Of a stretch of DNA of 20,870 nt, positions 1,162-17,138 are shown in pieces. Source of the DNA: a virus. Its lineage: Duplodnaviria > Heunggongvirae > Uroviricota > Caudoviricetes. The notes beneath the pieces were generated by a model, which was given only the letters and a program-made list of their open reading frames with translations, was not told the origin of the DNA and made no database searches. A program made the position numbers and the translations under genes. The stretch covers positions 1-20,870 of IMG/VR virus record IMGVR_UViG_2896595138_000005, one strand, 5' to 3'. Each line of letters opens with the position of its first letter. Position 1 is the stretch's first letter.

Positions 1162-1578
1162 CTATTGAGGTGCTGGAAGTTCAGAAACCGATTTATCAAA
1201 TGCTTTTCGCTCACGTGAAATAGTTTCTGCCTGATTAATCATTACCTGAGCCTGCTGGCGAACAGCTTCACTGGCAGGCTCTTTTGTTAAGAGCTGTGTA
1301 AAACCCGCGATAATGTTGCTGGCTAACATCTCAAACCGTTTTTTCTGAATATCTCTTGATTCTTCATCAATTGGTGGTTCACTATTGCTTAGTGCCGTTA
1401 CATATACGCGAATTGCCGCTGACCGGACATCATCAGGAAGATGATCAAATGTACTGGCTCTTGTTTTTACAAGTTCGACAATATTTGCCTTCTTAATATC
1501 TTCAGTTTTTTCATCAAGTACTGAGATAAAATTTTTTACTGATGCTTCTAATAACGCTTCTAATTTATTTAAATCCAT
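1162..1578 (-). CDS. hypothetical protein immediately downstream of N (pL operon)
   Basis: 138 aa from the ATG at 1578, with a GAGG RBS; sits 2 nt after the N stop codon. No recognisable family. Confidence 0.45.
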   Translation of the reverse strand: MDLNKLEALLEASVKNFISVLDEKTEDIKKANIVELVKTRASTFDHLPDDVRSAAIRVYVTALSNSEPPIDEESRDIQKKRFEMLASNIIAGFTQLLTKEPASEAVRQQAQVMINQAETISRERKAFDKSVSELPAPQ

Positions 1579-1580
1579 AA

Positions 1581-1964
1581 TTACCTCGCTGTCAGTTGTT
1601 TTGATTTCCGGTAGCCTGCCGCGTAAATGGCTACGTTTGGAAGACATACACCAGTTTCTGGTTGCTTATGTCCAAACTCATTCGCGTACACAATGGCCGC
1701 TCGCTCCAGATTGCGTCTGTATTCTTTCTGTTGCCAGATCACGTCCTGTGCCATGAACTTAATTGGCTTAGCGTCTTCTATGCGCTCAGGCGTTTCGTGA
1801 GTACCTTTAGCCTGAATCTGCGCTCTGCTTAGAGTAGGGCGGTGTAATACTTCTGAACTTATTGCTTCTTCGCGGGCCAGCACGCCGTTAGCTAATGCCT
1901 TTGCCTTTAAACGCTCACGACGACGAGAACGTGAATTGCCTTTGAACTGAGTTCTGCGTGTCAT
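1581..1964 (-). CDS. N: N-family transcription antitermination protein (P22 gp24 / Stx-phage N type)
   Basis: 127 aa with an N-terminal arginine-rich motif (NSRSRRRERLKAK) and a C-terminus YAAGYRKSKQLTAR typical of the N family; lies downstream of OL and a boxB hairpin. Confidence 0.8.
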   Translation of the reverse strand: MTRRTQFKGNSRSRRRERLKAKALANGVLAREEAISSEVLHRPTLSRAQIQAKGTHETPERIEDAKPIKFMAQDVIWQQKEYRRNLERAAIVYANEFGHKQPETGVCLPNVAIYAAGYRKSKQLTAR

Positions 1965-2128
1965 ATAGACCTCCTGATGAACTTTGGTGGTGTGGTAGGT
2001 GGGAGACCCATTTTGACCTGTTTCGGCCTACTTCAATTCGGCAATAGTCCCGCAGGCCTCGCCGCTTTACGTGCGACATATTCCCGTCCATGAACCCTTC
2101 ACCACACCCAAAGTTCACTTTGGTTATT

Positions 2129-2143
2129 GCGCTTTGTCAGCGC
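2129..2143 (-). promoter_or_regulatory. nutL boxB-like hairpin
   Basis: Minus-strand GCGCTGACAAAGCGC: 5-bp stem with GACAA pentaloop, between OL and the N start. Confidence 0.55.
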
Positions 2144-2214
2144 CGTAGATTCATATTCGAATCGTTGTATATTCACCGCCCTGGTGAGTAGTGCGTCCTG
2201 CTGATGGCTTAAAG

Positions 2215-2300
2215 ATAACCTAGGTTATAGCGGCGGTCAATAACTTAATTTATGGATTCTGATAAATAAGTTATAAGTGATGGATAATAAAGGTATTTTA
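2215..2300. promoter_or_regulatory. OL operator cluster / pL region
   Basis: Repeated near-palindromic sites ATAACCTAGGTTAT (2215..2228, perfect palindrome), ATAACTTAATTTAT (2240..2253) and ATAAATAAGTTAT (2262..2274), sharing half-sites with the sites in front of cI. Confidence 0.6.
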
Positions 2301-2410
2301 TTTTTGTAAATGTTGCGGATTGGTCGGTATTGGAAGGGGGGCGCTGTATTGCTGGCGTGTTGGTTCGTGGTTTACCGCATTTGCGGCTGTTAAATATGGG
2401 GGACGATCGC

Positions 2411-2445
2411 GAGGCAAAGAAAACCCGGCGCGGAAGCCGGGTTTG
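2411..2445 (-). terminator. rho-independent terminator after the 44-aa ORF
   Basis: Minus-strand AACCCGGC-loop-GCCGGGTT stem followed by TTTTCTTTG. Confidence 0.55.
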
Positions 2446-2459
2446 AGATTTAGTTATTT

Positions 2460-2594
2460 TCAGCAGCTCGGATAAGAGCGGAAGTGCTGACGAACATGTT
2501 CGAGCTCACCGAAACGTATGCGGCAGTAACTGCGCACATAAACCGGCTTGTCGTGTTCGTAGATGAAGTCATCGCGATTAACATCGTGAGCCAT
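2460..2594 (-). CDS. small hypothetical protein (44 aa) not in the supplied ORF track
   Basis: Hand-translated from the minus strand as MAHDVNRDDFIYEHDKPVYVRSYCRIRFGELEHVRQHFRSYPSC; AGGAG RBS 7 nt upstream of the ATG at 2594; terminator follows 16 nt after the stop. Confidence 0.45.
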   Translation of the reverse strand: MAHDVNRDDFIYEHDKPVYVRSYCRIRFGELEHVRQHFRSYPSC

Positions 2595-2715
2595 AGCTTT
2601 TCTCCTGTTTTTGTATACAGCCTGTTTACCCGAACAGGTTGTAGTTTGTTGGGAGAACCGCTATCCTTGGCTTGCGGTTGCCAAGGGTGTAGCGGTAGGT
2701 AATCCTCCATACACT

Positions 2716-2740
2716 TCGGAAATACTGGATATATTTCCGA
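2716..2740. promoter_or_regulatory. perfect 9-bp inverted repeat, candidate operator or hairpin
   Basis: TCGGAAATA-N7-TATTTCCGA, between the terminator of the 177-aa gene and the 44-aa ORF. Confidence 0.35.
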
Positions 2741-2768
2741 CCCAAAAAGCCCCGTTCCCTCGGGCTTT
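2741..2768 (-). terminator. rho-independent terminator after the 177-aa gene
   Basis: Minus-strand AGCCCGAGGGAACGGGGCT stem-loop followed by TTTTT, starting at the TAA stop codon. Confidence 0.5.
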
Positions 2769-3300
2769 ATTCTTTTGTTCCGCCATCAATCATCGCAAAA
2801 GATTCCACAATCAGACTGATACGCTTGGCTTCATCTTTTGTCAGGTCGCGAGGCAGGTTGCCAATGGTGACGATAAGATCTCCGCGCAATGGAATCGGCA
2901 GTTCAAATGTTTTTACACCAACCTGTACGTCAGCTACCGCCTTCTTCTTAGGTGCCATCTTTTTACGCTCCTTTTTTTTATTTACATCACCAACTGACAC
3001 ATTAATCTCACCATTCTGGTAGGAGATAAATTTATCAATAGCACTTTGCATTCGGCTTTTGTATGCCTGCAAAGATGATTCAGAGGGTTTGCTTTCTGCT
3101 GAGTCTGCGTACGAACTTGCTAAGTTGGCAACGCTATAATCACGGATATCGGCATCGGTGAAATCCGCCCCAAGAACAGTAAGAAGGCGCAGGGAAGAGT
3201 CACGGAGATTGCGGGCTGTAGCATCATTGACGATACCAAGCTCAGGAAGCATCTGTAAGAAGTCCTGAAATGCTTTGATGGTGTAGCTTTTGGTTTGCAT
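2767..3300 (-). CDS. hypothetical protein (177 aa) in the cI-to-OL cargo position
   Basis: Long ORF with a lysine-rich central linker (NKKKERKKMAPKKK); no recognisable family; flanked by its own 5' hairpin and 3' terminator. Confidence 0.6.
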   Translation of the reverse strand: MQTKSYTIKAFQDFLQMLPELGIVNDATARNLRDSSLRLLTVLGADFTDADIRDYSVANLASSYADSAESKPSESSLQAYKSRMQSAIDKFISYQNGEINVSVGDVNKKKERKKMAPKKKAVADVQVGVKTFELPIPLRGDLIVTIGNLPRDLTKDEAKRISLIVESFAMIDGGTKE

Positions 3301-3575
3301 AAAAAAGCCTCATACAGTTGATGAGGCAATACTAATTTGATCGTCAAAACAAATCAAGACCCAAGAAACGATCGTTGATTCCTTTCTTTGTGACAATACA
3401 GTCAAATCAAGTTTTACAAGGATTACTTTTCTTCGATTACATTAAAGGCCGCACTTCTGCGACCATCCATCACCAAAATGTCTCTTCACTCATCCGAAGA
3501 AGCAGCAATCCGGGTCAGCACGCACAAGCTCAAGCGCATCAGTCAGCGAAAGTTCAGTACTGTACTGATGCCATT

Positions 3576-3830
3576 TCATATCCTTCCGCATCCAATAGAT
3601 TTTCCATCTATCCAGAGAACGTATGTACTTGATTCTTGCTGATGGCAGGATGTTTGTTTCACCTGGGTTGCCCTGCCACACGGGCGCTGTTCGCCGATAT
3701 CTATCGTTTGGTCATTGATGCTATAAACAATATCCAGTTCATTGCGGATATGTTCAGGCGGCCTTATGCTTTCAATGAATTGGTGAACTTCTTTTTTGAC
3801 CGCTTGATATTCAAGGTCAGTGAACGCCAT
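3576..3830 (-). CDS. hypothetical protein (84 aa) co-transcribed with cI
   Basis: GAGGAGG RBS 5 nt upstream of the ATG; starts 37 nt after the cI stop on the same strand; no recognisable family. Confidence 0.55.
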   Translation of the reverse strand: MAFTDLEYQAVKKEVHQFIESIRPPEHIRNELDIVYSINDQTIDIGEQRPCGRATQVKQTSCHQQESSTYVLWIDGKSIGCGRI

Positions 3831-3867
3831 CTATCCTCCTCACCCAAACGTTTCTTCAGGCCACTGG

Positions 3868-4575
3868 TTACCAGCTATGCGATGACCAGAATACTCTGCC
3901 AATAATCCTTACGGTTTTATGAAATTCATCTCTATCCATTACTTCATCCGGGTACTCTTCGCGATTTATTGATCTGATTATCACCGATGTAGGAGTGGCG
4001 ATTAATGTTTTTACTCGCAACAAATCAGACTGGCAAATAGCGTAGGTTTTACCATCTCTGATGGTGGTATCTTGTGTGTTAACACCAACAACATCGCCAT
4101 CGTGAAGAGTTGGTTCCATGCTTTGACCTGTTACCCTTACCAGCTTGGCAGAACTTTCAGTTACCCCCATCTTTTTCAGATAGTACTTTCTGAAAACCAA
4201 AGAGAACTCTGATGATTCTTCTATCTCGCAGCTACCGCTTCCAGCCGAAAGCGAAACGTTAAGAAGAGGCAATGCGACAAACTCGTCATCGTTTTTTTTA
4301 ATGTCTTCCCATACCACAGCTTTTAAAGATGACTCACGGATATTGGATGGTTCTTCATGTGTACCATCCCTCATTTCACCAATACCAGAACTAAGCCATT
4401 CAGGGCGTACTTTTAAAGCATTAGCTAACTCAACCATCTTGCGAGATCCGTTTGTTTTACCGGATGACATCTTCTGTATGGCTGGCTGAGATATTCCAAC
4501 CATGTCCGCAAGCTGTGATTGCGACACCCCTGCCGATCTCATGGCTGCATTTAGTCTTTCTGCGAATGTTTTCAT
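3868..4575 (-). CDS. cI: CI-type prophage repressor (N-terminal HTH, C-terminal S24 LexA-like autopeptidase domain)
   Basis: HTH-like segment QSQLADMVGISQPAIQKM and a C-terminal S24-like region (VTGQSMEPTLHDGDVV, LRVKTL). Start placed at MKTFAERL (4575) rather than the first in-frame ATG (4605) because an operator site lies between them. Confidence 0.8.
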   Translation of the reverse strand: MKTFAERLNAAMRSAGVSQSQLADMVGISQPAIQKMSSGKTNGSRKMVELANALKVRPEWLSSGIGEMRDGTHEEPSNIRESSLKAVVWEDIKKNDDEFVALPLLNVSLSAGSGSCEIEESSEFSLVFRKYYLKKMGVTESSAKLVRVTGQSMEPTLHDGDVVGVNTQDTTIRDGKTYAICQSDLLRVKTLIATPTSVIIRSINREEYPDEVMDRDEFHKTVRIIGRVFWSSHSW

Positions 4576-4587
4576 ATCCACAAATCT

Positions 4588-4662
4588 ATAACTACGGTTA
4601 TCCAAAGTAAAATAATAAAGGTTATTGCTATCTTTTATAACTTGGGTTATCCTTGGTTATAA
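4588..4662. promoter_or_regulatory. OR operator cluster with divergent pRM/pR
   Basis: ATAACTACGGTTAT (4588..4601), ATAAAGGTTAT (4615..4625), ATAACTTGGGTTAT (4637..4650) and GGTTATAA (4655..4662), between the divergent cI and cro starts. Confidence 0.6.
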
Positions 4663-4686
4663 GCAATGGCTGAAAGAGGTATGCTC

Positions 4687-4911
4687 ATGAATTTAGTAAT
4701 TCAACGAGCCTTGAAGATTGTCGGTAGTCAAAAGCGGCTTGCCGACAAGTGTGGTGTAACGCAGCCAGCAGTACACAAATGGCTGAAAGGCGGGCAGGTT
4801 TCTCCAGAGAAAGTTACCGCCATCGTTAACGCCACTGGAGGGCAGATCAAGGCTTACGAAATTCGCCCAGATTTACCACACCTGTTTCCAAAACCGAATC
4901 AGGCAGCATAA
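4687..4911 (+). CDS. cro: Cro-like HTH repressor
   Basis: Small HTH protein (KRLADKCGVTQPAVHKWLKG) divergent from cI; AGAGGT RBS favours the ATG at 4687 over the ORF-track start at 4666. Confidence 0.7.
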   Translation: MNLVIQRALKIVGSQKRLADKCGVTQPAVHKWLKGGQVSPEKVTAIVNATGGQIKAYEIRPDLPHLFPKPNQAA

Positions 4912-4949
4912 GTAACACCGCTATTTTCACAATGGGCATTCGTCCTACG

Positions 4950-4964
4950 TCGCTGACAAAGCGA
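4950..4964 (+). promoter_or_regulatory. nutR boxB-like hairpin
   Basis: TCGCTGACAAAGCGA, same GACAA pentaloop as nutL, between cro and cII; a boxA-like CGCTATTTTCACAA lies about 25 nt upstream. Confidence 0.5.
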
Positions 4965-5049
4965 GCCCCAAGATATCTGACCAACTAAGGCCATATGCGT
5001 TTCCATGCATACCTTTCAACTAACTATTCACTATTGGAAATCTTAAGAA

Positions 5050-5349
5050 ATGGAACAAACAAGTTACAGCAAACTATCACAGCGCGACGTTGATCGCGCA
5101 GAAACAGATTTACTTATCAACCTGTCAACGCTTACACAGCGCGGTCTGGCAAAGATGATTGGCTGCCATGAATCGAAGATCAGTCGTACCGACTGGCGGT
5201 TTATTGCTTCGGTCTTGTGTGCTTTCGGAATGGCATCAGACATCAGTCCGATTAGCAGGGCTTTTAAGTATGCGCTTGATGGACTCACCAATAAAAAACG
5301 CCCGGTGTGCAAAACCGAGCGTTCTGAACAAATCCAGATGGAATTTTAA
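5050..5349 (+). CDS. cII: CII-like transcriptional activator
   Basis: 99-aa HTH protein (TQRGLAKMIGCHESKISR) in the canonical position after cro and nutR. Confidence 0.65.
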   Translation: MEQTSYSKLSQRDVDRAETDLLINLSTLTQRGLAKMIGCHESKISRTDWRFIASVLCAFGMASDISPISRAFKYALDGLTNKKRPVCKTERSEQIQMEF

Positions 5350-5371
5350 CAACATCCAACGAGGTAATTAT

Positions 5372-5643
5372 ATGCGAAACAAAGGCTTTAATCCACCTGA
5401 TACACACAAAGAAGCTAAGCGTTTGCGCTTCCTTCGTTCCATTGATGAAAGAACTCAAATCTCTTTTGTGAAAGTTGCCAGAACTGAGCTTCTGAAAGCT
5501 GAGGCGAGGGCGTTGCTCCCGCCTCTACCAAAAGAGGAGGGATATACGTTCATTCCAAACGCATTTCTGGAAAAGCTGCTCAAAGAAGACATATCCGTAA
5601 GTCAGTTTAACGATGTTCTTAAGGTCTTTCGTCAAGGCAGGTA
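5372..5643 (+). CDS. hypothetical protein between cII and the replication genes
   Basis: 90 aa from an internal ATG with a GAGG RBS, inside the longer ORF-track frame 5159..5644. Confidence 0.4.
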
Positions 5644-16800: not shown

Positions 16801-17103
16801 ATGAGCAGAAAAACCCAACGTTACTCTAAAGAGTTCAAAGCCGAAGCTGTCAGAACGGTTCTTGAAAATCAACTTTCGATCAGTGAAGGCGCTTCCCGAT
16901 TATCCCTTCCTGAAGGCACTTTAGGACAATGGGTTACCGCCGCCAGAAAAGAGCTCGGTACTCCTGGTTCCCGCACGGTGGCTGAACTGGAATCTGAAAT
17001 TCTGCAACTGCGTAAGGCGTTAAATGAAGCTCGCCTTGAGCGAGATATATTAAAAAAAGCAACAGCGTATTTTGCACAGGAGTCGCTGAAAAATACGCGT
17101 TAA
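16801..17103 (+). CDS. IS3-family transposase OrfA (HTH, leucine zipper)
   Basis: 100 aa; the A7G frameshift site lies near its 3' end. Confidence 0.85.
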
Positions 17104-17138
17104 TCGAACAATGGCGACAACAATTTCCCATTGAAGCG

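Follow-up and report, generated by a model that had tools for sequence, protein, structure and literature searches.

Between the repressor gene cI and the left operators (OL) of a lambdoid prophage, the slot which in phage lambda is occupied by rexAB, we find two independent accessory cargo units, one of which is broken in the copy studied here. The prophage was analysed over 20,870 nt of the IMG/VR virus record IMGVR_UViG_2896595138_000005; this whole stretch is called the window, and all coordinates follow its numbering. The window contains the immunity region of a lambdoid, Stx-phage-like (Shiga-toxin-type) prophage that has decayed. The first unit is a gene of the DUF3024 family placed directly after cI, and the second is a pair of genes for proteins of 177 and 44 amino acids (aa), separated by a long structured spacer. 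This anatomy is well supported. As regards the role of the units, exclusion or defence is our best guess, suggested by position, cassette anatomy and patchy distribution, and we assign a probability of roughly 45% to the explanation in which both units protect the lysogen against phages (by exclusion or abortive infection), through the mechanism proposed below.

The arguments for this role are that the slot is a defence hot spot, that the cassette formed by the gene pair is autonomous, with a patchy and mosaic spread, that the 177-aa protein has a variable N-terminus versus an invariant C-terminus, and that translation appears locked; with this combination of features, lysogen protection is the role that fits best. 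The first-pass annotation of this DNA had placed three minus-strand open reading frames (ORFs) in the slot, of 84, 177 and 44 aa, and all of them are indeed present between cI (3868-4605) and the left operators, in the order cI, three ORFs, OL/pL (2212-2253) and then N. The equation of the slot with the position of rexAB agrees with the lambda map, and phage 933W has the stk kinase gene in the same place. Moreover, the frames are conserved, all three being found in 14 of the 17 IMG/VR contigs fetched (including contigs with different cI alleles), in phage SH2026Stx1 and in 6 complete E. coli genomes, always as cI, DUF3024, 177 and 44, and no structural or housekeeping protein is found among the matches of the three ORFs. 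This constant order would favour the view in which all three genes form one co-operating system, transcribed from the repressor promoter pRM. We nevertheless consider a single system highly improbable, since each unit is widespread without the other, and since the DUF3024 gene is set apart from the 177-aa gene by terminator-like hairpins and a separate, putative promoter. The separate occurrence of DUF3024 (with the stk kinase or alone) and of the 177+44 pair (in Salmonella, Raoultella and VT2-Sakai, with neither DUF3024 nor cI) means that the three ORFs are at least two units, and not the three-gene system that they had been taken for.

The DUF3024 gene and its frameshift

The gene next to cI would encode 113 aa if intact (3490..3830, minus strand), starting 37 nt past the cI stop codon behind a GAGGAGG ribosome-binding site, and it is split here by a 1-bp deletion at 3682-3684, where the window has three G residues (a C-run on the coding strand) and its relatives have four. 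In alignments, the C4 run lacks one C in comparison with E. coli FDAARGOS_944, SH2026Stx1 and 933W. The deletion creates the 84-aa ORF at 3576..3830, which is therefore not a gene in its own right, as had been proposed, but the first 50 codons of the 113-aa gene followed by 34 out-of-frame codons. Both halves are matched by the Pfam family PF11225 (32.4 and 65.7 bits, gathering cut-off 24.9): residues 4-53 of the 84-aa ORF cover profile positions 2-50, and the ORF at 3490..3681, in the other frame, covers positions 49-112 of 112. A single uninterrupted frame of about 113 aa is absent from the window, and the close relatives are all intact. The exact 84-aa product is recorded in one assembly only (CP026845.1, a chromosome of 4.93 Mb from which the window evidently comes), and the intact 113-aa gene with normal spacing is found in the other assemblies carrying an identical 177-aa protein, as well as in 14 IMG/VR contigs. 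This deletion and a second one at 2762-2764, both private to one assembly, may be either homopolymer errors or very recent mutations. In different assemblies (P0242-P0245), the DUF3024 gene carries at least five independent -1 frameshifts, at differing positions of one G/C-rich stretch of about 35 nt (window 3640-3690), all of which yield an 84-aa product; since the shift in P0245 lies outside a homopolymer, these frameshifts cannot all be sequencing errors.

The earlier statement that the three genes belong to no recognisable family does not hold for this one, and stands in part for the other two, which fall in PHROG families of unknown function. Besides its Pfam assignment, the DUF3024 gene belongs to phrog_3467, and the intact protein (from the relative L003) matches the PADLOC model PDLC05018 of the system PDC-S43 with an E-value of 7.2e-42, residues 1-113 aligning end to end with profile positions 1-115. 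The PDC ("phage defence candidate") systems are 145 explicitly untested candidates, obtained from BREX, DISARM and type I restriction-modification (RM) loci on the principle of "guilt by embedding" (Payne et al., bioRxiv 10.1101/2024.01.29.577857). The gene is thus a defence candidate independently of its slot, although by virtue of what is explicitly a candidate list, and it differs from the source loci of PDC-S43 (BREX, DISARM or RM) in being prophage cargo after cI. We found no mention of DUF3024 or PF11225 in the literature searched, and a PDB search with DUF3024 gave no significant structural relative.

In 933W, the intact gene is L0084, the first one after cI in the arrangement cI-L0084-L0083-stk-L0081, in the same position and orientation as here and with 97% DNA identity; the two differ in that the window carries the 177- and 44-aa genes where 933W has L0083-stk-L0081, and in the frameshift. 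The stk gene of this operon, which in 933W lies downstream of DUF3024, reportedly excludes phage HK97. In lysogens of phi24B, whose immunity region is 933W-like, the expression of stk is kept on induction, as is that of cI, which by analogy lends indirect support to expression of a cI-DUF3024-stk operon in the lysogen. In the proposed mechanism, the DUF3024 gene would be transcribed together with cI from pRM, as the 37-nt gap and the shared orientation suggest. A weak terminator-like hairpin follows it (GGTCGCAGAAGTGCGGCC, 3447..3464, minus strand), and the same hairpin, with a full T-run, follows cI in VT2-Sakai and Oslo.

DUF3024 is also found far from this arrangement. A three-gene query finds matches in about 324 of 5426 complete E. 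coli genomes, nearly all of them over the DUF3024 part alone and 6 over the whole stretch. At the end of an Erwinia prophage, DUF3024, an L0083-like gene, a Ser/Thr-Tyr kinase gene and a 47-aa gene stand behind a dinI homologue, and in Rahnella DUF3024 stands alone behind two dinI genes, adjoining a type I-F CRISPR-Cas locus (loci L050/L051). The dinI-adjacent prophage end appears to be a second hot spot, with cargo in common with the cI-N slot.

Expression signals and leader RNA of the gene pair

The second unit reads, in the order proposed, as promoter, a hairpin hiding the ribosome-binding site, the 177-aa gene, a terminator, a 172-nt leader which again would hide a ribosome-binding site, the 44-aa gene and a second terminator. 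The candidate sigma-70 promoter, TTGATT-17-TAGTAT (3329..3357, minus strand), was read from the sequence; upstream of the Salmonella copy of the gene, TTGATT-17-TATTAT is kept despite an unrelated context, and we take this element to be the probable promoter of the cassette itself. A LexA box was not seen by eye upstream of the 177-aa gene.

Both genes have the signals with which they had been credited. Immediately before the start codon of the 177-aa gene lies the hairpin GCCTCAT-CAACTGT-ATGAGGC (3307..3327, minus strand), followed by T6 and the ATG, whose 3' arm holds the Shine-Dalgarno sequence GAGG; the Salmonella and Yersinia copies have equivalent Shine-Dalgarno-sequestering hairpins with different stems. 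The intrinsic terminator of the gene (2744..2765, minus strand), recognised by eye and in alignments, is weakened in the window by the second private 1-bp deletion (three G at 2762-2764, four in relatives), and its hairpin is retained in Raoultella with compensatory changes. The 44-aa ORF has its own ribosome-binding site (AGGAG, 2606..2602) and, also identified by eye, an intrinsic terminator, CCCGGC-TTCCGC-GCCGGG followed by TTTTCTTT (2412..2441, minus strand), which is conserved in Salmonella and Raoultella.

Between the two genes lies the structured spacer of 172 nt (2595..2766, minus strand), which contains a hairpin at 2717-2739 and a long-range helix, in which GGUUCUCC (2652-2659) pairs with the Shine-Dalgarno region of the 44-aa ORF (2602-2606). 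For the spacers of the window-type lineages RNAalifold gives 44 pairs, 12 of them with compensatory changes, and single-sequence folds in five lineages range from -54 to -71 kcal/mol, with the initiation region of the small ORF paired in all. A structure common to the window-type and Sakai-type spacers was sought and rejected, as the two cannot be aligned and share only length and overall foldedness. A scan of 1500-5500 against Rfam at a permissive E-value returned no RNA family. Known small RNAs (sRNAs) were also considered and set aside: anti-sRNAs of the AgvB/AsxR type map downstream of PR' and not in the cI-N slot, and Pas sRNAs are found in other contexts than this slot. The hairpin at 2717-2739 is a perfect 8-bp one (CGGAAATA...TATTTCCG), and in the Salmonella copy (L004) its 7-nt loop is reverse-complemented with the arms unchanged.

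The 177-aa protein

The 177-aa gene (2767..3300, minus strand) encodes a protein of three parts: residues 1-100 with the predicted core-binding fold of tyrosine recombinases, a disordered linker rich in Lys (residues 99-128 contain 9 K/R) and, at the C-terminus, the conserved motif PIPLRxxLxVxIxNLPxDLTxxEAxRI. In the AlphaFold2 (AF2) model built with an alignment, residues 1-100 form a helical domain with a predicted local distance difference test score (pLDDT) of 80-93, while the model shows disorder in residues 102-132 and is of low confidence at the C-terminus; the single-sequence model, built without an alignment, is uninformative, with a pLDDT of 46. Weak matches to the Pfam family Phage_int_SAM occur in 8 of 74 family members, and the catalytic domain (Phage_integrase) was matched in none of the 74. 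The 177-aa protein itself has just the linker and the 40-aa motif after its N-terminal domain and ends at residue 177. Of the parts of a tyrosine recombinase, it has the predicted core-binding (SAM-like) domain and not the C-terminal catalytic one, and its C-terminal motif is unrelated to any recombinase part. This protein is accordingly predicted to have a core-binding (DNA-clamping) fold without a catalytic domain.

The C-terminal 40 residues are the most conserved part of the family, with 83% mean pairwise identity versus 41% in the N-terminal domain, and the motif has no relative in Pfam (E up to 10) or in PDB profile searches. A PDB profile search with the whole family gave nothing significant, nor did a Foldseek search of BFVD, in which integrases again were top-ranked. 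The family comprises 53 clusters in Enterobacterales by a word-indexed search and 1113 clusters at E <= 1e-3 by a full hidden Markov model (HMM) scan, nearly all of 160-200 aa; the exact 177-aa protein is named at NCBI as a Shigella boydii protein. In two IMG/VR contigs (L019 and L031), a frameshift in the poly-A run coding for KKKERKK (A8, window about 2970-2980) splits the gene, which probably explains why the C-terminal 63 aa form a PHROG of their own (phrog_36396). An identity with the Gifsy antirepressors or IrsA, an idea arising from the dinI neighbour of the Salmonella copy, was rejected: the Gifsy antirepressors are small and encoded between dinI and irsA, and among the phage records listed for the 177-aa protein by tblastn just two are from Salmonella, both of them phage Oslo.

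According to the mechanism that we propose, the 177-aa protein would bind DNA without recombining it. Candidate targets would be inverted repeats with centres of 6-8 bp, of which its own spacer holds examples, or sites of the core type on the DNA of incoming phages, and the C-terminal motif might serve in oligomerisation or in contact with a conserved partner. The same predicted fold could instead belong to a catalytically dead recombinase acting as a decoy or regulator on core-type sites or operators, which would control the integration or excision of its own or a rival element, or repress transcription in the manner of the recombinase-derived MrpR and SroF, and would thus be a regulator of life cycle or competition and not an immune effector. 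We regard this as unlikely: the gene is patchily distributed across unrelated elements with different integrases (lambdoid, P2-like, a capsid-encoding island, a tail operon), which argues against a core role in the life cycle, the window has no integrase nearby, and the binding sites are candidates only. MrpR and SroF keep the full-length recombinase body (chains 320 and 317), in contrast to the 177-aa protein with its missing catalytic domain.

The 44-aa protein and its substitutes

The 44-aa ORF (2460..2594, minus strand) encodes a hydrophilic protein of phrog_21154 (PHROG E-value 2e-31), with a grand average of hydropathy (GRAVY) of -0.90, a maximum Kyte-Doolittle value over 15 residues of -0.03 and no hydrophobic segment. 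The ratio of nonsynonymous to synonymous differences per site (pN/pS) is 0.03-0.07, with pS up to 0.53, and the neighbouring spacer has freely diverged; this pattern of substitution identifies the ORF as a real gene, strongly constrained by purifying selection. Each of the 17 IMG/VR contigs holding the small ORF has it downstream of a gene of the 177-aa family (44-99% identity). VT2-Sakai and Oslo have ORFs of 40-41 aa at the corresponding place, which match phrog_21154 with an E-value of 5e-8 and share with the 44-aa protein the motif Y.RIR.G.LEHV..H.RS.P. A zinc site was considered and rejected, as Cys24 is a Glu in the Sakai and Oslo homologues, Cys44 is not conserved, and no conserved cysteine pair is found. 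In the RefSeq record of VT2-Sakai, the 40-aa homologue (L042:3196-3318) is not annotated and an ORF on the opposite strand is annotated there instead; the small ORF is likewise unannotated in the RefSeq O157:H7 chromosomes listed, with one feature only under the match.

Family members without phrog_21154 have another small ORF in the same place, after 149-168 nt: a protein of 46-47 aa with a CxxC...CxC zinc ribbon in the Enterobacter and tail-operon members, and phrog_33859, of 58-61 aa, in Yersinia and relatives. Including phrog_21154, three small-ORF families have been found so far (the alternative ones at L009:5657-5797, L052:7769-7912, L013:5682-5858 and L046:4744-4929, each after a core-binding-domain-family gene). 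In L052, the start of the spacer is homologous to those of Sakai and Oslo, yet the small ORF is different. Pfam searches of the small proteins at E up to 10 gave just a weak treble-clef hint, for the zinc-ribbon ORF.

In the mechanism preferred here, the 44-aa protein would be a tightly translation-locked co-factor or effector. A toxin-antitoxin-like addiction module could also be imagined, with the 44-aa protein as a leader-silenced growth inhibitor and the 177-aa protein as its DNA-binding neutraliser or regulator, whose C-terminal tail would fold on binding; such a module might stabilise the prophage and secondarily abort infections. The predicted N-terminal DNA-binding domain, the disordered linker and the poorly modelled C-terminal segment do resemble type II antitoxins, synteny is strict (17 of 17 loci), and RNA structure covers the initiation region of the small ORF in each lineage, a situation also known from the mRNAs of type I toxins; an ORF of about 44 codons with its ribosome-binding site sequestered in a long stable leader is the sole feature in common with type I systems. 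This interpretation is nevertheless a doubtful one, since a terminator and 172 nt separate the two genes, with no co-translation of the type II kind, and since the hydrophilic 44-aa peptide is unlike most type I toxins. Furthermore, the 177-aa gene is always upstream, no antisense RNA gene was detected by Rfam and no antisense promoter by the promoter scan, the C-terminal motif is still conserved where unrelated small ORFs replace the partner, and there is no match to a toxin or antitoxin family in Pfam, NCBIfam or PADLOC.

Distribution of the gene pair

In Salmonella, a 79%-identical 177-aa gene, a gap of 172 nt and a 95%-identical 44-aa ORF adjoin dinI and pepN where a prophage ends, and neither cI nor DUF3024 is close by. 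Identity to this copy is mosaic, the N-terminal half of the gene being about 75% identical and its 3' part about 95%. In a Raoultella element with a D5-type primase, the upstream protein is 43% identical and the small protein 95%. The proteins Sap23 of VT2-Sakai and gp53 of Oslo are 39% identical to the 177-aa protein, and are followed after 173-174 nt by small ORFs whose products show roughly 45% identity by eye; this Sakai-type pair is present in 234 of 5426 complete E. coli genomes. Other family members lie directly after cI, or after cI and BstA, in Yersinia prophages, after cI in another lambdoid prophage, between replication and capsid genes in an Enterobacter island, near gin in the Yersinia phage YP3, and within the tail operon of a siphovirus, where the gene is inserted in the opposite orientation, on the other strand. 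We found no description of the 177+44 cassette, the literature searches with protein accessions and locus names having returned unrelated papers only.

Some of these contexts, together with the state of the prophage, may be taken to indicate a lysogenic conversion unrelated to phages (acting for instance on host transcription or virulence), or decaying passengers without function in this host. The prophage is degraded, its pL operon is truncated by IS600 and its DUF3024 gene is frameshifted, DUF3024 has been frameshifted recurrently and independently elsewhere, and other cargo at the Salmonella site includes effector-like genes (PagK, NleG). We hold such a role, or the lack of any, to be rather improbable, given that purifying selection has strongly constrained the 44-aa ORF and the C-terminal motif across genera, and that the 177- and 44-aa genes are intact in the window and identical in several assemblies.

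Relation to known systems and weight of the proposed mechanism

Structurally, the cassette answers to the description of a moron, a term for genes inserted into lambdoid phages together with an autonomous promoter and terminator (Juhala et al. 2000, as cited in PMC4104026). It has its own terminators and a promoter, the latter putative, it is present or absent between close relatives, and it occupies at least four kinds of site, a tail operon being among these insertion hot spots. What sets it apart is that it has two genes, which an elaborate RNA leader separates, and "moron" denotes a structure and not a function. With lambda rexAB, the genes share the slot between cI and OL, the strand of cI and an accessory place in the phage life cycle; unlike rexAB, they include no RexB-like membrane protein, and the cassette would use its own promoter and terminators instead of pRM or pLIT. 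No homology to RexA or RexB was detected, the best E-values being 24 (BLASTP with the three proteins) and 1.5 (tblastn with the whole window). The cI-to-OL slot is a mosaic hot spot which also houses the abortive-infection gene BstA, downstream of the repressor (PMC8585504), and one Yersinia prophage has BstA beside a 177-aa homologue after cI; the Pfam domains KilA-N and BstA_C, however, are absent from the three proteins of the window.

Several observations weigh against a protective function by the proposed mechanism. None of the proteins matches an experimentally validated defence family, PADLOC giving PDC-S43 alone, and the three of them show no detectable enzymatic, membrane or nucleotide-binding domain, so that none can be assigned an effector activity. 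For the core-binding-like domain, DNA binding is suggested by the fold alone, and the C-terminal motif has a low-confidence model and lacks relatives in Pfam and among solved structures. The proposed promoter (3329..3357) scores below the threshold of the promoter scan, the covariation in the leader comes from three or four lineages only, and the phrog_21154 partner is not universal, since Yersinia, Enterobacter and other members have different small ORFs. Finally, the prophage is decayed and flanked by IS600, and its genes may be under no selection in this host.

Going beyond the single locus, one may speculate that the pair belongs to a type of two-component module for prophage exclusion or immunity that has not been described before, and that Sakai-type Stx2 phages and many other mobile elements carry it. 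Its parts would be a core-binding protein derived from a catalytically dead recombinase, in which the N-terminal "reader" varies and the C-terminal 40-aa motif is invariant, a translation-locking leader of about 150-175 nt and a swappable tiny protein. We put this forward as a tentative idea, with a probability well below even.

Setting within the prophage

On the right, the slot is bounded by the cI repressor (3868..4605, minus strand), a helix-turn-helix (HTH) protein with an S24 peptidase domain (Pfam Peptidase_S24, E-value 3.9e-18; HTH_3, 2.6e-07), assigned by PHROG to the transcriptional repressors, beyond which lie cro (4666-4911, plus strand) and cII (5050-5349, plus strand). Its left edge is formed by the OL operators and a pL-like promoter (2212..2253, minus strand), the latter found by the promoter scan at 2240..2212, after which comes N (1581..1964, minus strand; Pfam N_peptide, E-value 2e-15). 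The operators at 2215-2228 and 2240-2253 fit the pattern ATAACYNNGGTTAT, OR operators with the same pattern lie within 4588-4660, and the pattern has 15 matches versus 2.1 expected by chance.

Transposase genes of the insertion sequence (IS) type IS600 (IS3 family) stand on both sides of the prophage fragment, at 1-819 and at about 16801-17957, and no integrase is found nearby in the window. The transposase gene at 1-819 cuts the pL operon short, which makes the prophage cryptic; to the left of N and of a 161-aa ORF, there is nothing but a 40-aa Nmad5 fragment before the IS. This ORF (1162-1647, minus strand) shares 67 nt with the 3' end of N. Its conservation is 91-95% in a number of IMG/VR relatives, and other assemblies annotate it with a length of 138 or 161 aa; no family was found for it in Pfam, PHROGs, NCBIfam or PADLOC.

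Implications

As it stands, the stretch is an uncharacterised cargo of a known kind of locus, and its interest comes mainly from the presence of the same cassette in the Sakai Stx2 phage. One annotation trap has been corrected, in which a frameshift private to one assembly mimicked a novel 84-aa gene. The family of the 177-aa protein, which comprises more than 1000 clusters and lacked annotation, can now be assigned a predicted integrase core-binding fold without a catalytic domain. The gene pair carried by the Stx2 phage of the reference O157:H7 strain Sakai and by 234 complete E. coli genomes emerges as a conserved autonomous unit, whose second gene is missing from the annotations listed and yet is under very strong selection.

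The slot between cI and N is among the few places where the contribution of a prophage to its host becomes visible: rexAB, BstA and stk are all located there. If the cassette is an exclusion system, it would add a non-enzymatic mechanism, based on a DNA reader, to prophage immunity, and could bear on the competition among Stx phages; if it is not, it would still offer a tractable case of a moron in which translation is locked twice.

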